Assembly (NCBI GenBank): GCA_035221665.1
Contig: CM069148.1
Span: 40,052,001 to 40,116,000, forward strand
Source: Okamejei kenojei
Lineage: Eukaryota
Direction: 5' to 3'
Length of the DNA: 64,000 bases
Below the pieces are notes generated by a model. The model saw nothing but the letters and a program-made list of their open reading frames with translations, was not told where the DNA came from and searched no databases. Position numbers and translations under genes: made by a program. Below are positions 4,010 to 50,324 of this stretch, piece after piece; position 1 is the stretch's first letter; each line of letters begins with the position of its first letter.

Positions 4010-5187
4010 TTCTGTATAGACTTCAGCTCTGCTTTTAACACAATCATTCCACAGCAGCTGGTGGAGAAGTTGGAGTTATTGGGGATTGATGCTGGCACAT
4101 GTAACTGGGTCTTGAACTTTCTATCACAACGCAGCAGACAGGGTGGGCAGTAGGACATCAAAAACCATAGCCGTGAGCACTGGCACACCCCAAGGCTGTG
4201 TCCTAAGCCCCCTGCTGTTCAGTCTGCTTACACACGACTGTACTGCTAGACTCAACAACAACTTCATCAACAAGTTCGCTGATGACACAACAGTGGTGGG
4301 TCTCATCAGTGACAATGATGAGTCGGCGTACAGGATGGAGGTGGAGCTGCTCACAGGATGGTGCAAATCCCACAACCTCATTCTCAACGTGGGAAAAATG
4401 AAGGAGATGGTGGTTGACTTCAGGAGGGCGGGAAAACAACGCCATACACCTCTGCATATCAATGGAGCTGATGTGGAAAGGGTCAGCAGTGTGAGGTTCC
4501 TAGGACTCCACCTGTCAGATGACTTGACGTCCACGACCAACACCACAGCATTGGTCAAGAGAGCCCAGCAGCGACTACACCCTCTTCGAAGACTACGGAA
4601 AGCAGGTCTCCCCATTGCACACCTACGAACTTTTTATAGGGGGACAATCGAGAGCACATTAACCTACGGCATCACCTCCTGGTTCGGGAGCTGCAAGGCG
4701 TACGAACGGCACCAACTGGACAGGATTGTGAAGACCGCCAGCAGGATTATTGGTGCTCCACTCCCATTATTGCTGGACATATACAGGAAGAGATGTATTA
4801 GCAGAGCCATCTCCATCATCAAAGACCCATACCACCCATCGCATCACATATTCTCCATCCTGCCATCTGGGAAGAGGTACAGGAGCATCAGCTGCAAAAC
4901 CAGCAGGATGCTCCTCAGCTTTTTCCCGCAGGCAATTAGACTGATAAACGGACTTTGCCCCCTGCCAAAGTATCGTGCACCAAACACCAACCTGGACACA
5001 CTGAAGCAGAGCCATTGTCGTGCCACTGCCAATCGGAACTCGTGATATATGCACTTTTATTCTTTATTTCTATTTATTTTTTACCACACACTGAATGGAC
5101 ACTGGTTGAGAAACGCTTTTTCGTTTTCCTCTGGGTATGTAAATACTCAGAAAAATGATAATAAAGATATACAATACAATACAATAC
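4010..5187 (+). mobile_element. 5'-truncated Rex1/Babar-type non-LTR retrotransposon (RT C-terminal half)
   Basis: From ~4010 it reads [19 protein letters not shown]...CNWVLNFL, then a frameshift into ORF 4143-5045 with GTPQGCVLSPLLFSL, KFADDT and NTTALVKRAQQRLHPLRRL. AATAAA at 5160-5165 and a (TACAA)n tail at 5170-5187. Confidence 0.88.
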
Positions 5188-12903: not shown

Positions 12904-13766
12904 CAGTGCCCTCCATAATGTTTCGTACAAAGACCCATCATTTATTTATTTGCCTCTGCAATCCACAATTTGAAATTTGTAATAGAAAAAAAAATCACAT
13001 GTGGTTAAAGTGCACATTGTCAGATTTTAATAAAGGCAATTTTTATATATTTTGGTTTCACCATGTAGAAATGAAGCAGTGTTTATACATAGTCCCCCCA
13101 TTTCAGAGCACCATGATGTTTGGGACAGCAATGTCATGTAAATGAAAGTAGTTATGTTTAGTATTGTGTTGCATATCCTTTACATGTAATGACTGCTTGC
13201 AGTCTGCGATTCATGGACATCACCAGTTGCTGGGTCTCTTCTCTGTGATTTTCTCCACGTGATGCATCCATCTTAAGCGTATGCTTGTTTTGGCAGCTAG
13301 ACCCCTTCAGTTTTCTCTTCAGCATATAAAAGGCATGCTCAATTGGGTTCAGATCTGGTGATTGACTTGGCCACTCAAGAATTGACCATTTTTTAGCTTT
13401 GAAAAACTCCTTTGTTGCTTTAGCAGTGTCTTTGGGATCATTGTCATGCTGTCGAATGAACCGCCAGCCATGAGTTTTGAGGCATTTGTTTGAGCAGATA
13501 GGATGTGTCTACACTTCAGAATTCATTATGCTACTACCATCAGCAGTTGTATCATCAATGAAGATAAGTGAGCCCGTACCTTCAGCAGCCATACATGCCC
13601 AGGCTATAACACCCCCACCATAATGTATAAAAATTGCCTTTATTAAAAAATCTGACAATGTGCACTTTAAGCACATGTGATTTTTTTTTACAAATCTCAA
13701 ATTGTGGAGTACAGAGGCAAATAAATAAATGATTGGTCTTTGTCCCAAACATTATGGAGGGCACTG
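12904..13766 (-). mobile_element. Internally deleted Tc1 (DD34E) DNA transposon, IR/DR-type ends
   Basis: TIRs of ~145 bp (cagtgccctccataatgttt... and ...aaacattatggagggcactg). The minus strand encodes GGGVIAWACMAAEGTGSLIFID and [39 protein letters not shown], with 34 residues between D and E. Confidence 0.9.
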
Positions 13767-35778: not shown

Positions 35779-36707
35779 AATAGACAATAGACAATAGGTG
35801 CAGGAGTAGGACATTTGGCCCTTCGAGCCAGCACTGCCATTCACTGTGATCATGGCTGATCATCCCCAATCAGTACCCCGTTCCTGCCTTCTCCCCACAT
35901 CCCCTAACTCCGCTATTTTTAAGAGCCCTATCTAGCTCTCTCTTGAAAGCATCCAGAGAACCTGCCTCCACCGCCCTCTGAGGTAGAGAATTCCACACTC
36001 ATCACTCTCTGTGAGAAAAAGTGTTTCCTCGTCTCCGTTCTAAATGGCTTACTCCTTATTCTTAAACTGTGAACCCTAGTTCTGGACTCCCCCAACATCG
36101 GGAATATGTTTCCTGCCTCTAGTGTGTCCAAGCCCTTAACAATCTTATATGTTTCAATGAGATATCCTCTCATCCTTCTAAACTCCAGAGTGTACAAGCC
36201 CAGCTGCTCCATTCTCTCAGCATATGACAGTCCCGCCATCCTGGGAATTAACCTTGTAAACCTACGCTGCACTCCCTCAATAGCACAAATGTCCTTCCTC
36301 AAATTAGGGGACCAAAACTGCACACAATACTCCAGGTGTGGTCTCACTAGGGCTCTGTACAACTGCAGAAGGACCTCTTTGCTCCTATATTTGATTCCTC
36401 TTGTTATAAAGGCCAACATGCCATTTGCTTTCTTCACTGCCTGCTGTACCTGCATGCTTACTTTAATAGACTGATGTACAAGGACCCGCAGATCCCATTG
36501 TACTTCCCCTTTTCCCAACTTGCCACCATTTAGATAGTAATCTGCCTTCCTGTTTTTGCTACCAAAGTGGATAACCTCACATTTATCCGCATTAAACTTC
36601 ATCTGCCATGCATCTGCCCACTCGCCCAACCTGTCCAAGTCACCCTGCATTCTCATAGCATCCTCCTCACAGTTCACACTGCCACCCAGCTTTGCGTCAT
36701 CTGCAAA
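35779..36707 (-). mobile_element. 5'-truncated CR1 LINE (RT C-terminus and 3' tail)
   Basis: ORF 35928-36677 with WQMKFNADKC, LYRALVRPHLEYCVQFWSP and RRMRGYLIE. FADD motif at ~36695-36707. Short tandem tail (caataga)n at 35779-35796. Confidence 0.92.
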
Positions 36708-36915
36708 TATAATCTTGTGTACACATAAACAGGTATTTCAGATGATGCTAAGGAAATGAAGGTTTCATTCAATTCTTAAAAGAACCTTTCTCTCACAATA
36801 AATATTTAGTGAATGTTTCACAGGGGAAATAGGATCACTGTAACATAAGATTGACTTGACACATATTAAAGAGATAATATGTCATACAAAAGAACTCAAA
36901 ATGACAAACTCTTAC

Positions 36916-36991
36916 CAGCCTTGTAGGCAATATAAGAATGAACGATTGCTAATGTCCCAGGCCATGGGATTGCTTCTTCCTTTTTCAGAAT
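36916..36991 (-). CDS. PHF21A: PHF21A exon after the PHD finger
   Basis: ttttTAG|...|GTaag, phase 0-1. Encodes [25 protein letters not shown]. Confidence 0.94.
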
Positions 36992-37852: not shown

Positions 37853-38008
37853 CTGCTCCTGACATTTAGGACAAATCCACATTCCTTTGGGAATGGCTTT
37901 TAATGGCGGGTCCAGGCACTCCAGGTGATACACACGAGAACAAGTGTCACACATCAGCAGCTGTCCACTACGTCGACACACAGAGCAGAAATCCTCATGG
38001 ATGTCACC
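37853..38008 (-). CDS. PHF21A: PHF21A PHD finger exon (H3K4me0 reader)
   Basis: gatAG|...|GTgtg, phase 0-0. Encodes [52 protein letters not shown], a C4HC3 PHD finger. Confidence 0.96.
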
Positions 38009-38857: not shown

Positions 38858-38965
38858 AGACAAGGTTGTGTTTTTTGTGATGTTTTCAACGTTGTTTGCC
38901 TCATCTTGCAGCTTGCTGACAGGGCCCCTTTGTAAAGTAGCCGTTGTGGCTAAATAGGGCAAACC
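38858..38965 (-). CDS. Candidate extra in-frame PHF21A cassette exon (36 aa)
   Basis: Pyrimidine-rich acceptor (ttttctttactttaaaccatctttaacTAG) and donor tct|GTGAGT. 108 nt, phase 0-0, no stop: GLPYLATTATLQRGPVSKLQDEANNVENITKNTTLS. No homology recognised. Confidence 0.4.
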
Positions 38966-40417
38966 CTAGTTAAAGATGGTTTAAAGTAAAGAAAAATAAA
39001 ATAAATTTGCAATTGTCCATTTATGGCCTTACATGTTAACCCATCTAGTTTCTTCTACATTCTCTGTGTGACGTTCCAAAAATACAGCGCAGCAGTGGTC
39101 AGATTCAGAATCTGTAAAAACAGATTCTCATACACAGCTGATAGGAATTTTCACACATTGTTGTCAAATTTTCAGAAAGATTATTCACTTCTTATTGAGC
39201 ACACACAAAACTCGGGTTCAGATCCAGTATAGTAACTAAATTTTAATCGACATTTGAAACTGAAAGCTTGACCAGTTAATCCTAAATGTGTATAATATTT
39301 CAATATGGATAACATTATGAGAATGGAGATCAGTAATTAATATTCAAATTGTAATATAATAACGTTAAAAAGTGCAGTTCATTCATACCCACAAGCCACA
39401 TATCTTCAATGATATCATGGTTTTAAATCATTGAAAGCTTCCTGTTTTGTTGTACAACTTTATACAATCAGATGACACTAAAACTGATGATGGAGTGGAC
39501 AGTGATGAAGGTTATCTAAGATTACAACAGGATATAGATCAACTAAGAAAGGGGACAAGAGAATGGCAGATGGAATTTAACTCAGATATGGAATTAATGC
39601 AGGCAAGTAGGATTAGTATAGCCTGATGGTCAGTGGGACTTGTTTCTTAGTGGGACTTATGTTGTGCAACTCTAGGTCTTTAAACTATTTTTCATTGACA
39701 AGAGTTCTACTTCAGACGTTTCTTAATAATATAGTTGACTCTCTATATTTTGCATCAACAGATTTCTTAGTGATGTTTTTCACCAATGTAACATCTGCCT
39801 GAAGTAAATTACAATGTGTTGGAATAACATCAGTTCAACCACATTCCCCACATTGCAATTTCCACACAATGGCCAAATGATTTTCCCAGTACATACAACT
39901 GATGATTAATTCTCTAGGCATTAACCACAGTTCACAAAGCATTGACAAAAGCCAACGTGTTCACCAATGAATTATCATGAAATATCAAGTGGCTAATTAA
40001 TTTGAAAACATTGAAGTTTATGAGCACCAGTAAATCAAAATTCTATGCAGCAGAGTTAGTGAACCTTACTCCAGACTTCAAAACCGGGGGAGGGGGGAGA
40101 AATTTTCAACTCACCTTGGCAACGATGTCAATGATGGGATGGGGAAGGAAATATTATTTGACTGCGACCCATAAACAAGTATATTTAGGTGAGGAATAGC
40201 TATACATAGTTTGCTCCAATATGCTTTAGCTTTTAAAAGTTACTAATCACTATGAATACATTAATGCCATCTTTGAACTAAAATTCATACTGTTGAACAA
40301 CATTGTGGAAATTGGGTGAGGCCATTCAAAACCATATTCAGTCCTTACACCTGAAAGCAGTTTCATTCTCTGTAATGGGCTAGATTTAAAGCAGTAGAAC
40401 CTTTATATCACTACGTT

Positions 40418-40452: not shown

Positions 40453-40785
40453 AATATAGTCCATTCTGTTAATAACATGAACGCATTCTCCAAAACATCA
40501 AAAATCTAGACAAGACAACCACAGTTGCAATATATGATTCACTTTGCATTGCTTATAATAATCATGTGTTGTAGGGTAGAGCTGGTGGCTTTGTTTAGTA
40601 ACTGCATACATAGAAGAGATGTGGAAAATAATGCGGCTGAAGGAAATGGAGGGGTTGGGGAAGCTAAAGTTTTAGTTCAAGTTTTTGTTATTCCAATTTT
40701 ATACACCATCATCCATGATAAAAGATTACATAAGTTGTCAAAATTAATATTCTGGCTTAGTAACCCTGTGAAGTTTGTAACTTAC

Positions 40786-40940
40786 ATCTACAGAGCTGGG
40801 ACTGGATGCAGACTGTGTTGGAGCAGCAAAACTGAGCAAATTCTCTGTTTTTTCGAAATCTGGGGAGGCGGGATGACTTGGAGGGGAGGAAGGTGCCATT
40901 GCCCCCAGACCCAACACGTTAGTGTACTTAGGAGGGCGAC
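40786..40940 (-). CDS. PHF21A: PHF21A canonical AT-hook exon
   Basis: gtgTAG|...|GTaagt, phase 1-0. Encodes (G)RPPKYTNVLGLGAMAPSSPPSHPASPDFEKTENLLSFAAPTQSASSPSSVD and completes the RRRGRPPK AT-hook. Confidence 0.93.
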
Positions 40941-40984
40941 CTACACATAAGAAACAAAAACACAAAATATAGACAAACACATAC

Positions 40985-41007
40985 CTTCAACCACTGATCC
41001 TCATTGG
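40985..41007 (-). CDS. PHF21A: PHF21A neuron-type mutually exclusive microexon (23 nt)
   Basis: cctttctctttcctcaatggCAG|ccaatgaggatcagtggttgaag|GTatgt, phase 1-0. Encodes (A)NEDQWLK, versus ANEEHWPK recalled for the mammalian neuronal isoform. Confidence 0.88.
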
Positions 41008-41572
41008 CTGCCATTGAGGAAAGAGAAAGGAGGAGCATAGACAGTGTTAATAAACAATCATAAGTTAAAATGTCAGTGTTAATAAACAATCATGTTAAAA
41101 GGTATAAAAATTAAGTATTTTTAATTTCCAAATACACCACTTAAAATTTGAATGTTAAGTGAGCAATCAAGAGTTGTAGATCAACTATCTGAATGTCCTC
41201 AAAATCAAACCAGGATCTGTTTTAAAAGTCTTTTAGTAAGATTACCCTACCATAAGTTGGTATACCTATACATTTGCAGCACAGCAGCTGTTACAATCCT
41301 AATTTTACTACATCTTATATTTGATAAATTTAAAATAATTCATGTCAGTTTAAAAAAAAGTAAAAGCCACCACAAATAGCTTTTTAGAAAAAAACTCCCT
41401 CAAAAAATTATATTGAGGAAGATTGGCCTTAATAAAGCAAGAACACATATATTTGATACCACTCCACAATAGTGAACATGGAGGAATCATCGGTATTCAG
41501 TCATTTATTGACAAGCTTGAGTTAATCATCCTTTTTCATATGTACCACATTCGTCAATTTTTATTAGAATTT

Positions 41573-41960
41573 GGGGCAACACAGTGGCACAACGGTAGAG
41601 TTGTTGGATGATCAGCCATGGTCATATTGAATGGCCGTGCAGGCTCGAAGGGCTGAATGGCCTACTCCTGCACCTATTTTCTATGTTTCAGCACCAGAGA
41701 CCTTGGTTCAATCCTGACTATGGATGCTGTCTGTACGGAGTTTGTACGTTCTCCCTGTGACCGTGTGGGTTTTTTCCGATTGCTCTGGTTTACTCCCACA
41801 CTCCAAAGGCATACAGGTTTGTACGCTAATTGGCTTTGGTAAAATTGTAAATTGTCCCTAGTGTGTAGGATAGTGCTAGTGTATGGGATGATCACTGGTC
41901 GTTTGGACTAAGTGGGCCGAAGGGTCTGTTTCCAAGCTGTATCTCTAAAGTCTTAAGTCA
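41573..41960 (+). mobile_element. V-SINE (HE1-like) interrupted by a CR1 3' tail at ~41603-41689
   Basis: A box acagtggcacaacggtagag, B box ggttcaatcc, V-domain-like ggagtttgtacgttctccctgtgaccg. The insert matches the CR1 3' end at 50850-50935. Confidence 0.8.
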
Positions 41961-42579
41961 TTGGCTTGTTACCAATATTTGTGAAACTAGATGCTGAATA
42001 CAAGTGATTTTCAGAAGAGAATTTATAGTGTTATTAAACTTTAGAGAATTTAAACTTGTCTAAAGCGTTATTTATCATTTTTATCCCAGTAACAAATTTG
42101 AAATGGGATGAATGTAAGAATTTGTGCAGAATTACTGCATTAACATGACTTTCATTTTTCAAACAAACTTAATTAGAACAATCACTAATAAATTTCTTCC
42201 ACATCAACATTCATGAATGTTTCCACAGCTCTTATCAACTATGACTAAAACGTTAATTCAGCTTAAATTTCAGCAGTTTGAAAAAAATATTGTAAAACTA
42301 AAGGCAATACAAAATGTTGTGACTTTTTTGCTGCCATTTTTATGTAATTAATATTATAGATAAAAACAATAGAGCCACATGATAGATAAAATTATGGTTA
42401 AACACTGAAGATAGCAATTCAGCTCAATAAGGGTTATCACTGAAAAAAGATGTTCTAATATATTGTGCTCCTATATTGTAGGAAATATGCAGATGTGTGA
42501 ATGTTTTGTATTGTTTTGTATAATTTATTATCACTTGTTTGTTTAGTGGTAAGAATAGAAAAAATCTAAAAAATGCAGG

Positions 42580-43290
42580 TGTATGAAGGAACTACAGATA
42601 CTGGTTTAATTCGTAGACACAAAATGCTGGAGTAACTCAGCAGATCAGATAGCATCTCTGGAGAAAAGGAATAGGTGACGTTTCGGGTCGAGACCCTTCT
42701 TCCGACTGAGAGTTGTGAATTTGTGGAATTCTCTGCCTCAGAAGGCAGTGGAGGCCGATTCACTGAATGCATTCAAAGGAGAGTTAGACAGAGCTCATAG
42801 GGCTAGTGGAATCAAGGGGCATGGGGAGAAGGCAGGAACGTGGTACTGATTGTGGATGATCAGCCATGATCACATTGAATGGCGGTGCTGGCTCGAAGGG
42901 CCGAATGACCTATTCCTGCACCTATTGTCCATGTATCTATGAAAGGGAAACGAGAGATATAGATGGTGATGTAGAGATAGAGAACAAATGAATGAAAGAT
43001 ATGCAAAAAAAGTAACAATGATAAATAAAACCAGGCCATTGTTAGCTGTGTACTAGGTAAGAACGGGAACAATGAGACTCAATAAGACAACTTTGAAGCT
43101 GGTACCACTGGGTGGGGAAGGGTCAGGGAGAGAGAGGGGTGCAAGGGTGACTTGAAGTTAGAGAAATCAATATCAACCACTGGGTTGTAAGTTGCCCAAG
43201 CGATATATGAGACGCTGTTCCTCCAATTTGCCTATGGCCTCACTCTGACATTGGAGAAGACCTCGGACAGAAAGGTCAGTGTGGGAATGA
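42580..43290 (-). mobile_element. Penelope-like element 3' region (pLTR with hammerhead motif and endonuclease C-terminus), split by a CR1 3' fragment at ~42711-42940
   Basis: gacgtttcgggtcgagacccttcttc at 42677-42702. Minus-strand QSEAIGKLEEQRLIYRLGNLQPSG...IDFSNFK at ~43150-43250 resembles a PLE GIY-YIG C-terminus. Confidence 0.75.
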
Positions 43291-46200
43291 AAAGGGGAAC
43301 AAAAGTATTAAAATGCCGATGTTGGAAATCTGAAAAAACCCTGAAAATACTGCAAAGATTGCGTAAGTCAGTCATCAACTGTGGAAAGAGTGAACATTTC
43401 AGGTCAAAGACCTTTTGCCAGAACTAGAGAAGAGAAATAAAACATGTAGCAAAACAGATGGGGGCTTAATACATTGAATAAAAGGAATATCTTTGATTGT
43501 GTGAGGCCAGGAAACCCCCTGGGTTTTGAGGTCCAATGGATACACAAAAAATTGCAGATACTTGAGAAACGTAACAGCATCTGTGGATGCGAAGGACAAA
43601 CAAAATTTCAGGTTGTCACCCGTCATCAGTCTAATTGGAGTAAGGGGAAGAAATATGGAAAAGAGAGCTGGGGGGTGACTTAAAGCCTGGCAAGTGATAG
43701 GCAGATACAGGTGAGAGATGTGTTCCATTTCCTTCGGTTACACGGGAAAGTACCTGGGGAGCGGTCGGTACGGATTAGCAAACCAAGGAGTTGCCTAGAT
43801 AATGGTATCCACCATAAGTGGAAAGGGATCAGGGCGGGAAGATGTGACTGGTGGTGGGATCCCGTTGAAGATGGCAGAAATGTCAGAAAATGATGGGTGA
43901 AGGTGAGCTGGAGGGAAACTCTCTATTTGTTCCATCTGTGGGAGAAATAGTTACAGCAGAACTGTAGGATACAGAGGAGATGCAGGTGAGGATTCCATTC
44001 ACAACAACAAGGAGGAAACTGTTCAATGAAGAAAGAGGACATTTCAGATGTGCTAGAGTGAAAAGCCTGCTCTTGGGGGCAGGTGTGGTGGAGACAGAGA
44101 GATTGAGAGGGATGGTCTCCTTGCAAGAGGCAGGGTGGGAGCAGGTGCAGTAAGGTAACTAAGGGCTAAGTGGCTTTGTAGTAGGAATCAATCAATAGTC
44201 TGTCCCCTGAAATAAAGACAGAGTGTTTGAGAAATGGTGAATGGGGTATCAGAAATAGTCCAAATGAATTTGAGGGCAGAGTAGAGGTTGGTAGTAAAGT
44301 TCATGAAATCACTGATTGTGCTCGGGTCCAGGAAGTAGCCCCAATTGTGGAAGTAGCAGAGAAAGATCTGGGGAATTGTGTCGGGATACATTCGAAATAA
44401 GGAGTGTTATACCTAACCAACAAAAAGAGAGGCATACCTGGGGCCAACAACATTGCCCATGGCTACACATTTAACATGATTAAAGTGATAAGGGTCAAAA
44501 AAGTTGTTAAGGGTGATTCTGCCAGGCGGAAGAGACTGTTAGTTTAGGGGTTCTGATTGGGTTGTTGTTCAAGGAAGAAACAGGAGCCCAAGGCCTTCCT
44601 GATGAGGAATGGTCCTTTGTCCCCTATTCATCTCTACCCATCTTTCAATTAGCCCTCCCCCTACCTGTACTCACATATTATTTTGCCAAGCTTTGTCCCA
44701 ACCCCACCTCCCTTTACCAGCTTTCATCCCGCTACCCCAGTCTGTAAAGGAATCCCAGCCAGAAATGTTGCCCTTCCGTTCCCTCCACAGTTGTTGCCTG
44801 ATCTGCTTAGTTCCTCCAGCACTTAATTTTACTGCTCGAGTTGTACAGGTCAAGTCATCACAGGGGGCGGTTAGAGAGAAAAAAATAGTATAAAATCTGT
44901 GAGAGTTGGACTTTTGTAGAAGGAAAATACAAACAAAAGATCATAAAAAGGTGTAAATGTAGGGCTATTGGACACGCCTAGCAGGTCAGGCTGTGCTAAT
45001 GGAGAGTCAAAAACGAAGCCGATATAAATCGTAGACTTACAGCCAAAAATAGACAATTCTGATCAAGACAGAGAGTTACCCAAATATAGAATTCAGTTTC
45101 AATGCCTGCAATGTGCCGATGGAAAATGAGGTTGTGTTCTTCAAGCTTGTGTTAGGCCTGGTACATAGACAGATCAGAATGGGAGAGGGATGGAGAGTTA
45201 AATTTGCTGATTGCAGGGAGCTGTGCATCACCTCTACACACTGAATGCAGGTGATCTACAAAATTGTCCCAAATTGACATTTGGTTTCGACGACACAGAG
45301 ACAACATTGCAAACTCCAAATTTTAACTCTAGTTCAGAAGAGATGCAATTGAAGTTCACTGGCTTCACTTTGAAAGACTGTTATGCTGGATGGCAGGAAG
45401 GAAAGAGTAAAAAGGATGTCTGTAGTTGCATGGAACAGTGCCATAAGATGAATGGCTGTTGTGGATAGAAGAGCAGACCAGAGAAATACAAAAGGAATAG
45501 TCCCTTCAAAATGTTGAAAGGGGAGGTGGAGGAGATGTTTGCCATTGACATTCTGCTGAAGCTGGCAGATATTACAAAGGATGATCTGTTGAATACAGAG
45601 GCTGGTGAGGTAAAAGGACAGGACCAAGGGAACTATTTCATTGCTCTGTCTAGGAGGGGAGGCAGTGAGAGCAGGGATGCATGGAATAGTTGATATACTG
45701 TCAAGGGTGGAAGGGAGCCATTGTTCAGGAAGGACGAGGATATCTTAGGGGCAGCAATTGTCTCGGTGGATGATCTTTTCATTGGAGAAAATGGAATGGA
45801 AGTGGAGGAACTGGGAAAAAGGAGTAGAGTTAGGGTGGAAGGAACTACAGTTGAGATAGTATGGGAGTGTATGGACTTTCAATGAGTGTTTGTTGCAAGC
45901 CTATCTCCTGAGAAAGAGACAGAGATCAAGTATGGGGAAGAGAAGAGACAGAGATGGAACATGTGAAGATGAATGCACGGTAGAAATTGACAGCAAAAGT
46001 AATTACATTTTAGTGTTCTGCTTGAGTGTAGGAAGCAGCATTAATGCAGTTATTGATATATCAGAACAAGTTGAGGGACCCAAGGAGGTCGGAATGAAAA
46101 TCTGTTCCACAGCATGGGCCCAAATAGATTGGTTGGGTCTCTGGTCAAGGAATAAATGAAGGGGCCTCAGACCATCCTTGAGTCAGATGGAGATTCTGAG

Positions 46201-47588: not shown

Positions 47589-47649
47589 CTCTTCTCCGTG
47601 TCCCAGGTTGCACAGGGCTGTTCAAGTAAGTTACTGCTGTTTTTTTGCG
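47589..47649 (-). CDS. PHF21A: PHF21A exon preceding the AT-hook/microexon pair
   Basis: aataCAG|...|GTac, phase 0-1. Encodes RKKTAVTYLNSPVQPGTRRR. Confidence 0.92.
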
Positions 47650-48270: not shown

Positions 48271-50324
48271 CAGAGATGCCAACCCTAAATTTTGTTCACA
48301 GTAACATTCAACCCATTTGTCAGTAACAAATGGGGGTAAATGCATTTCTCTCAGTAACATGTTGCGGCACCAGAAATATGCATGGCAACGACCCAAAATC
48401 TGCAACGCGCGTTGAATCCAACCTTCCTTTTTTCAACTAGTACTATATACAAACTCATTAAACACACATAAACATCCTTTAGTATACACAGTATCACTTA
48501 AAAGATGTACTTATATATATTTTGATGAGTCTTGAATGCTTTAGCCTTCAGGCACAGCTAACAATAACATTGTCACTGCCGAAAGCTATGCAATCACTCC
48601 AAGACAGGGCTCTCTTTTGCATCTCGTTATGGAGAACTTGGAATATCCCTTCTCCTGTTGCATCAGTATTGCAGTTGGGGACGGACAGAAGTGAAACTGC
48701 AATCTCTTTGGCCTCCTCATCAAAGTGACGAACAACAATGGGGTACATCTTGGATTTATCAGTGCTGCCATCAGTGCTGAGGCTAAATGGGCGTTTGTCC
48801 ATTGAATGGCAGAGTTTTTTCTGTATTTCTTTCGAAAGTTCTCCGGTGATAGCAGTAGTCTTTGTTCTGGCACTTTGGTAGTTCTTTGCTATTGCAGAAT
48901 CGGGGAACATTTGCCTGAACAATGTTGTGTTCCAAAAGGAAATGAGTGAAGAGAGTTTCAGCTCTTGTAACTTCTTGTTCACTAGAACTTGAAGATGTTG
49001 TTGGTTTGAAAAACGAATCAATCCTTTTTGATTTCAACTTACTGTATTCTTGATGCTTTTTTGAGTTGACGTGTCGTCGACAGTCATCTCTACCACCATG
49101 TCCGACTGTAAAATCCAACCGGCAATCTGAACAGAAAGCATAGTTTTCTCCAAGTCTACTCTGTTGTATAACAGGCCACGTCTGAGAATATTCTGGTTTG
49201 TACTTTTGCATTCGCTTAGTAATTTTGCGGGGAATGCCTGATGACTCTGTCTCCATCTCACTCTCAGTCTCAGCAGGTCTCTTGTTGTGAGATTCCATCA
49301 TGTCCAAATTGTCCAAAAATCAAACAATGTAAACTCAATTGTCTAAATGACAATGCCAATGCCAATGCCACGATGATGAGAAATAGCCGTTAAGGTCCAA
49401 ATCCCACTTAATTTCTTTTCTCCCTGCAGGTTCCTTGTGAGAATCCATGACCAAATTCTCCAAAAGTCACAGTTTCCAAACAATGTCAACTCGATTCGAT
49501 GACCATGAGGCATGACAATGCAATGACAATCATTGCAATGACACGTCCCCAATGGTAATGCAATGCCCACCGTGAAGGCGTGATGAGATTGAGAAATTCC
49601 CGTGACAAATCTAAGTTTTTCCACTGTTTGAAGAATATCCATCCAAGAAATGATGAAGGTTTGAAACAAAACCAGGCTTAATTGCAGAAACACAGCACAT
49701 AAAATCACGTCCCGATAACACTTGTCACTGAGCTTTATTTCCAATTCCAGTAATTTCTCCGCGATCCGCTACTAACTATGCATAACGTTTCGTATAGATA
49801 TAGTGCAGTCACTGCAGTGCATCGCATGTGTATGTATACGGCATGCATAGTTAGCTAGCGCTGGGGATCGGAATACCACATACATGTACTGTAGTGTACG
49901 GCTATAATCCAGGCCACCAGCGGAGTGCATTGTCACTAAACAAGGATTCAGCGAGAATTGTGCACGTGCGTGCATAGCAATATGCGCCGCCATGCGAGTC
50001 CTTGGTTTTACACATTCAAGCATGTGAGTCTGCTCGCAATGATTTTTCAGTCACAAATAGCCAAAAATACGCGGCGCTGCACCTTGGCCGTGTGCAATGG
50101 CATACGGACGTTTGTGCGTTGCAACCTGAAGACAATTATCGCGGCTTTTAAACAGCAACGATCCCGCCCAATTACTCCGGGAGCGGACAACGCATTTGCT
50201 TGTTGTTTTTTTTTATTGTTTTGATTATTTTTCTCCGTAACAACATGTTTGGCTGCCGGAACACCGTAATAAGGTTATTTCGCCGGGACAAAATACGGCG
50301 AATCCGGGACACTTGGCATCTCTG
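48271..50324 (-). mobile_element. Internally deleted hAT-superfamily transposon with 6-bp TSD
   Basis: 12-bp TIRs cagagatgccaa / ttggcatctctg, with GAAGAG on both flanks. Confidence 0.85.
48548..49316 (-). pseudogene. Truncated, frameshifted hAT transposase
   Basis: BED-like finger AFCSDCRLDFTVGHGGRDDCRRHVNSKKH, a frameshift near 48920, then MFPDSAIAK...RTKT...FSLSTDGSTD...FGSDN (first two catalytic Asp). The C-terminal half is missing. Confidence 0.85.

Follow-up and report, generated by a model that had tools for sequence, protein, structure and literature searches.

Branch-point position as a probable basis for the exclusive use of a PHF21A microexon and its neighboring AT-hook exon in a skate

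PHF21A is a haploinsufficient neurodevelopmental gene whose splicing switch has been published for mouse and human, along with the consequence for DNA binding (PMC11864812); the mammalian PHF21A-n and PHF21A-c products correspond to BHC80-4 and BHC80-6, respectively. How the two alternative exons are kept apart is not addressed in the literature that we found. The question arises in a natural minimal version in the window considered here (the whole stretch of DNA analyzed, 64,000 nucleotides), the minus strand of which carries the 3′ half of PHF21A, and the branch-point hypothesis set out below can be tested directly at this locus. Our main reading, to which we assign a probability of roughly 0.68, is that this is the orthologous PHF21A pair, with a microexon form that is likely neuronal and predicted to lack DNA binding, and that the spacer between the two exons likely cannot be cut out, because its branch point would lie too near the microexon donor.

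The window comes from a skate, as indicated by the AT-hook exon, which matches P0019, a skate protein already annotated, at 52 of 52 residues, and by the best hits of the PHD finger, which are from cartilaginous fish; the best hits for the gene are chondrichthyan PHF21A, at 98%. The same genome (G000) carries a separate PHF21B locus on C19, with A and B forming separate supported groups in our tree, and the PHF21A pair region is single-copy in this genome.

Read along the minus strand, the common upstream exon (47589–47649, the equivalent of human exon 13) ends in phase 1 and supplies the AT-hook with its first arginines. The acceptor region of the microexon (41008–41110) contains several YTNAY branch-point candidates from −40 upstream, a pyrimidine tract and one TGC, at −30. 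The microexon itself (40985–41007, 23 nt, phase 1-0, AG...GT flanks) encodes ANEDQWLK and is the equivalent of human nE14, and is separated by a U-rich GT...AG spacer of 44 nt (40941–40984) with no G-triplets from the AT-hook exon (40786–40940, 155 nt, phase 1-0), which reads GRPPKY... and is the equivalent of human cE14. Downstream of the pair lie an exon of 108 nt (38858–38965, phase 0-0, 36 aa) into which both alternative exons splice, the PHD-finger exon (37853–38008, 156 nt, phase 0-0) and the next coding exon (36911–36991, the start being exact and the end approximate, from tblastn). These coordinates and phases, together with the chondrichthyan PHF21A matches, bear out the identity of the pair given in the initial annotation of this DNA, which had placed all three elements exactly (41007–40985, 40984–40941 and 40940–40786). 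It was also correct that double inclusion is incompatible with the frame: at 23 and 155 nt, both exons have lengths of 2 mod 3, such that including both or neither leads to a frameshift and a stop. As separate observations on this intron, the branch-point region of the microexon is tandemly duplicated at 41042–41100 (32-nt unit, period 32, 1.9 copies), and very high-copy repeats are found at about 41571–45000.

Transcript evidence was taken from Logan contigs of four runs (X1–X4) out of 22 listed, all from one study of one close relative and carrying no tissue label. Two of the four are flagged as "probably DNA" and none of the listed runs is recorded as RNA, yet spliced joints are present. 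We note that such contigs lose rare forms and have a phasing limit of 31 nt, and that their depths are not additive (in X3, about 14.6 for the upstream-to-AT-hook junction plus 11.4 for the spacer exceeds 15.2). Joints spanning CT..AC introns link the AT-hook exon with the 108-nt exon in all four runs (depths of 75.4, 25.6, 15.2 and 14.3), the microexon with the same exon in three (depths of 0 in X1, then 26.5, 9.4 and 15.2), and the 108-nt exon with the PHD exon in all four. Both single-exon isoforms are thus transcribed in this close relative, and both enter the 108-nt exon. The junction 40985>38008 proposed earlier, and likewise 40786>38008, is found in none of the four runs; the true downstream exon is the one at 38965–38858, which had been missed. 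The proposed junction 47589>40940 fared better, the upstream exon being joined to the AT-hook exon in 4/4 runs by way of a loose end at 40942, where upstream junctions are derived from loose ends and contig geometry and the joint from the upstream exon to the microexon is not listed directly.

That the 23-nt exon is no chance occurrence is clear both from its joint to the 108-nt exon in three of the four runs and from its peptide, which recurs in identical form in 17 of the 406 proteins fetched, from 12 named chondrichthyan species. Contrary to the expectation that gene predictors miss such exons, the microexon is therefore annotated in all 12. Its use varies by sample, being absent from X1, which in runs without a tissue label is evidence of regulation only. 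By homology with mammals, the microexon form in the skate is likely neuronal, and it is predicted to have lost DNA binding, as ANE replaces the GRP core just as in a mammalian GRP-to-ANE replacement mutant reported to have lost DNA binding (PMC11864812).

We then come to the fate of both exons together. A microexon-to-AT-hook junction that skips the 44 nt appears in the joint and gap tables of 0/4 runs, and thus 0/3 microexon-positive runs, contigs being liable to drop rare forms. The two exons do, however, co-occur. Record 23 of X3 is a 101-nt contig (40913–41009 plus 4 letters that do not align to this region, depth 11.4) that spans 28 nt of the AT-hook exon, the entire spacer and the microexon, and ends in upstream-exon sequence; in a simulation at k=31, a contig of 101 nt is expected if the spacer is retained, and one of 57 nt if both exons are spliced together. 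The same retained contig is implied by depth and bin arithmetic in X2 (about 16) and X4 (about 10), with none in the microexon-negative X1, such that the co-occurrence of both exons in one RNA, with the spacer retained, is seen in one run and inferred in two. The mutual exclusivity initially ascribed to the pair hence holds insofar as removal of the spacer was never seen, but not for the mere presence of both exons in one RNA. The retained block of microexon, spacer and AT-hook exon is 222 nt long, and a stop codon falls 142 nt short of the donor of the AT-hook exon.

It is possible, if doubtful in our view, that this contig represents a splicing intermediate only, in which the upstream intron has been removed and the microexon donor is still unused, and that it is irrelevant to the mechanism. 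Intronic pieces at depth 3–10 indicate that pre-mRNA is present in the runs, and contigs cannot phase whole molecules, both of which would suit an intermediate. In X3 and X4, however, the AT-hook contig (187 nt) continues unbranched into the 108-nt exon, which argues, as far as contigs can, that the retained form is spliced further, and X3 has zero cover at 40494–40747, behind the AT-hook donor, whereas an intermediate at depth 11 should extend into that intron. We note that this alternative touches one step only of the mechanism proposed below, and is compatible with a steric block.

Homologous spacers allow the length of the spacer to be separated from the position of its branch point. A pattern scan of metagenome contigs for spacers of 47–107 nt returned two loci, L012 with 98 nt and L013 with 73 nt, described as teleost-like and bird-like from the likeness of their translations to P0057 and P0090. 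All three spacers have a long pyrimidine tract and lack a T-N-A branch-point core between −18 and −44. The skate spacer has adenines at +3, +15, +17, +37 and +43 only, and the T-N-A cores of the three spacers lie at most 13 nt from the donor, inside the microexon, or at most 11 nt from the acceptor. Of 20 acceptors from PHF21A and PHF21B that served as controls, 19 do have a core between −18 and −44 (Fisher p 0.002), in a comparison where the three spacers are homologous rather than independent and several of the control acceptors are heuristic picks. A donor-to-branch-point distance below about 50 nt is forced in the skate by the 44-nt length, provided that the branch point lies in the spacer, and is a prediction only for the 98- and 73-nt spacers. 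By eye, a mouse guide RNA (PMC11605454) is the reverse complement of 20/20 bases across the L013 donor, and thus the 5′ end of the spacer is conserved between mouse and L013.

Annotated pipefish isoforms, from our reading of the inserted peptide, imply still longer spacers, of 102–105 nt. In these proteins (P0091, P0092, P0116, P0439, P0440 and P0442), 34–35 hydrophobic residues are inserted before the AT-hook core, and the insert begins Gly-Met-Ser, as the first bases of the spacer would read. Apparently, the last AG of the microexon is used here as an acceptor, in a third route that splits the AT-hook, although these models may be an annotation artefact. The same AG was rejected as a coding acceptor in the skate, where it would yield a stop.

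The initial annotation had attributed the block to the 44-nt spacer as such. Part of this stands, in that no spliced form is found in the three microexon-positive runs, but the length is not conserved, and we regard it as highly improbable that 44 nt alone enforces exclusivity as an ancestral device. For the skate on its own, this explanation is nearly equivalent to that from the branch point: 44 nt falls below the 65-nt threshold reported for the human short-intron population, G-triplets are absent, and splicing of the spacer was never seen. Human introns of 43 nt and 49 nt are reported to be spliced, but these are G-rich, unlike the skate spacer (PMC4463651). The same exon pair nevertheless occurs with the longer spacers of L012, L013 and, by implication, pipefish, and the two exons are found together in RNA that keeps the spacer; if species with long spacers are equally exclusive, length would be refuted as a general device. 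Branch-point position is the better fit, with the branch points themselves being predicted from the sequence.

A further alternative dispenses with the steric block altogether, and holds that double-spliced RNA is made and then removed by nonsense-mediated decay, while in neurons the AT-hook exon is kept silent by distal elements of the intron. Double inclusion would indeed shift the frame at each of the three loci, at two of which it meets a stop within the pair, and in a survey of human mutually exclusive exons 60% of the clusters are reported as non-triplet and only 9% as steric candidates (PMC5740500). A human minigene has also been reported to give a product with both exons included, which, with its authors' reading, favors surveillance, although the wording is also compatible with a retained spacer (PMC12234916). 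The branch-point hypothesis predicts that this product may be just that; if it is truly double-spliced, then the block is not absolute in human. We consider surveillance without a block unlikely, since RNA with the spacer retained, which carries a premature stop, was assembled at depths of about 10–16, while the double-spliced form is absent from 3/3 microexon-positive runs, and since the tract without a branch point is conserved. In addition, when the microexon is deleted in mice, neurons are reported to regain the canonical form at a comparable level, which makes skipping of the AT-hook exon contingent on the microexon, and this normal use of the AT-hook exon argues against an independent neuronal silencer (PMC11605454). 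None of the 406 proteins fetched combines an AT-hook with a microexon that follows the upstream exon, a count from which annotation would hide frameshifted forms; one hypothetical teleost model (P0043), outside the counting pattern, joins both peptides without the upstream exon.

Returning to the branch point, we propose that the upstream exon would by default be joined to the AT-hook exon, and that in neurons, by homology with mammals, an SRRM3/4-type activator would let the microexon acceptor win. The microexon donor would then be unable to pair with the AT-hook acceptor, because the plausible branch adenines all lie within 17 nt of this donor, under the steric threshold of roughly 50 nt from donor to branch point (PMC7969005, PMC5740500). 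The donor may then either skip to the 108-nt exon, giving the productive short isoform, or remain unused, leaving the 222-nt retained block as a predicted target of nonsense-mediated decay or as nuclear-held RNA. Steric block and frame surveillance would thus together give exclusivity at the level of the protein, resting on the position of the branch point and not on 44 nt as such.

Among known systems, the mammalian pair is the closest. It is listed in the human catalogue as cluster 544, with nE14 (23 nt, ANEEHWPK) and cE14 (164 nt; PMC5740500), and a brain-specific PHF21A event or switch has been reported in zebrafish (PMC4438066). The skate pair shares with it the gene, position, phase 1-0, 23-nt microexon and loss of the AT-hook GRP core, and differs from it in the apparently shorter spacer (44 nt), the 155-nt AT-hook exon, an additional exon of 108 nt ahead of the PHD exon, the skipping of the PHD exon in frame, and the lack of a proximal UGC. 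The TGC nearest the skate microexon acceptor is the one at −30, while the two bony-vertebrate loci have TGC at −6 and at −28 or further, the proximal UGC at −6 of both being absent from the skate acceptor. A review lists human PHF21A among the targets of SRRM4 (PMC5891588), and neural microexons are reported to have branch points at least 40 nt upstream of the acceptor (PMC12871342). In common with SRRM3/SRRM4-dependent neural microexons, the skate exon falls within 3–27 nt, is conserved, and has branch-point candidates at least 40 nt upstream of its acceptor; it differs from them in that it does not preserve the frame alone but replaces a neighbor, with its sole nearby TGC at −30.

In steric mutually exclusive pairs such as exons 2 and 3 of alpha-tropomyosin, the branch point sits close to the donor of the first exon. 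Another such pair, OGDH exons 4a/4b, resembles the skate pair in its short intervening intron, its long pyrimidine tract without the usual branch core and its candidates less than 50 nt from the donor, with branch points reported below the proposed 50-nt steric threshold (PMC7969005). Compared to both of these, the skate exons are unrelated in sequence and length (a microexon versus a 52-aa exon), the branch points are predicted, and there is a retained-spacer by-product. PHF21A does not appear in the text or supplement of the OGDH paper (PMC7969005), and the 57 steric candidates of the human survey may include the human PHF21A pair (PMC5740500). Our literature searches turned up nothing on the spacer or its retention, on conservation in sharks or lampreys, or on a microexon in PHF21B, although VastDB and the supplements of large microexon surveys may list conservation in sharks. 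The core switch is ordinary conservation of a known event, and the shark and ray isoform is already in public annotation; what is added here is an explanation by branch-point position, a by-product that retains the spacer, the PHF21B paralog, and the 108-nt exon with PHD skipping.

These last two are features of cartilaginous fish. Among the proteins fetched, the 108-nt exon is found only in those of chondrichthyans, where it is kept from chimaera to skates and is omitted by a few isoforms (P0015 and P0188). The PHD exon (37853–38008) is skipped in frame in X2, X3 and X4, all microexon-positive, and not in X1, as shown by loose ends at 38858 that carry the first bases of the exon at 36991. A strict tie between PHD skipping and the microexon was rejected, however: of 26 chondrichthyan-type proteins without a PHD, 8 have the microexon and 18 the AT-hook exon. 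The PHD is kept in all 76 fetched tetrapod proteins with ANEDHWPK. A product that combines the microexon with the PHD skip would be a subunit with neither reader.

As to its age, the switch was correctly held to be older than the split between cartilaginous and bony fish, and lampreys and PHF21B suggest that this is probably an underestimate. Variants of the microexon peptide are found in gar, sturgeon, teleosts, reptiles, birds and monotremes, and in annotated isoforms of three lamprey species the AT-hook segment is replaced by seven residues, DEEFLWK, which are probably homologous to the microexon, judging by their position and acidic...WK pattern. In PHF21B (locus L014), a 23-nt microexon of phase 1-0 (G000:C19:42551260-42551238, minus strand) encodes ANEELCWK, at the same position and with the same donor hexamer as in PHF21A. 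It is present in 8/8 chondrichthyan proteins and in the sea bass and alligator members listed, and absent from two PHF21B-like representatives (P0310 and P0321). No AT-hook exon was detected in the 10.5 kb between the flanking PHF21B exons, where a motif scan in the three sense frames and five tblastn queries from AT-hook exons gave chance hits only (best E 0.45), although a remnant in advanced decay may persist there. Skipping of the PHF21B microexon would thus shift the frame, making it frame-critical. Mouse Phf21b is reported to be induced when neural progenitors differentiate (PMC7462064).

In invertebrates, the AT-hook is found in four of five named clusters and the microexon in none of the members listed. 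No amphioxus or tunicate protein was identified among those fetched, and the origin of the microexon is therefore bracketed only by lophotrochozoans and lampreys. A tree of 20 proteins, with the alternative region excluded, gives support to three groups, A, B and cyclostomes, and none to the order in which they branch. From this, we infer that the AT-hook is ancestral, that the microexon is older than the A/B duplication, and that the AT-hook exon was lost in B. On the evidence of PHF21B and the lampreys, the switch would go back to early vertebrates, and one splice isoform may have become a gene of its own.

A joint reading of these data is speculative, and we offer it tentatively. The microexon would be a vertebrate invention, planted against the branch point of an ancestral AT-hook exon before the A/B duplication. 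PHF21B would be the neuronal isoform frozen into a gene, its AT-hook exon lost and its frame-critical microexon gating expression to microexon-competent cells. The retained RNA of PHF21A would serve as a regulated dead end, reducing dosage while the switch takes place, and PHD skipping in cartilaginous fish would be a second dial, the result being a subunit that reads neither DNA nor histones.

Finally, the window also contains apparent fragments of LINE reverse transcriptase and DNA transposons (open stretches, labeled by eye), at 4116–5042, 13161–13508, 35931–36737, 39506–39660 and 48551–49319.
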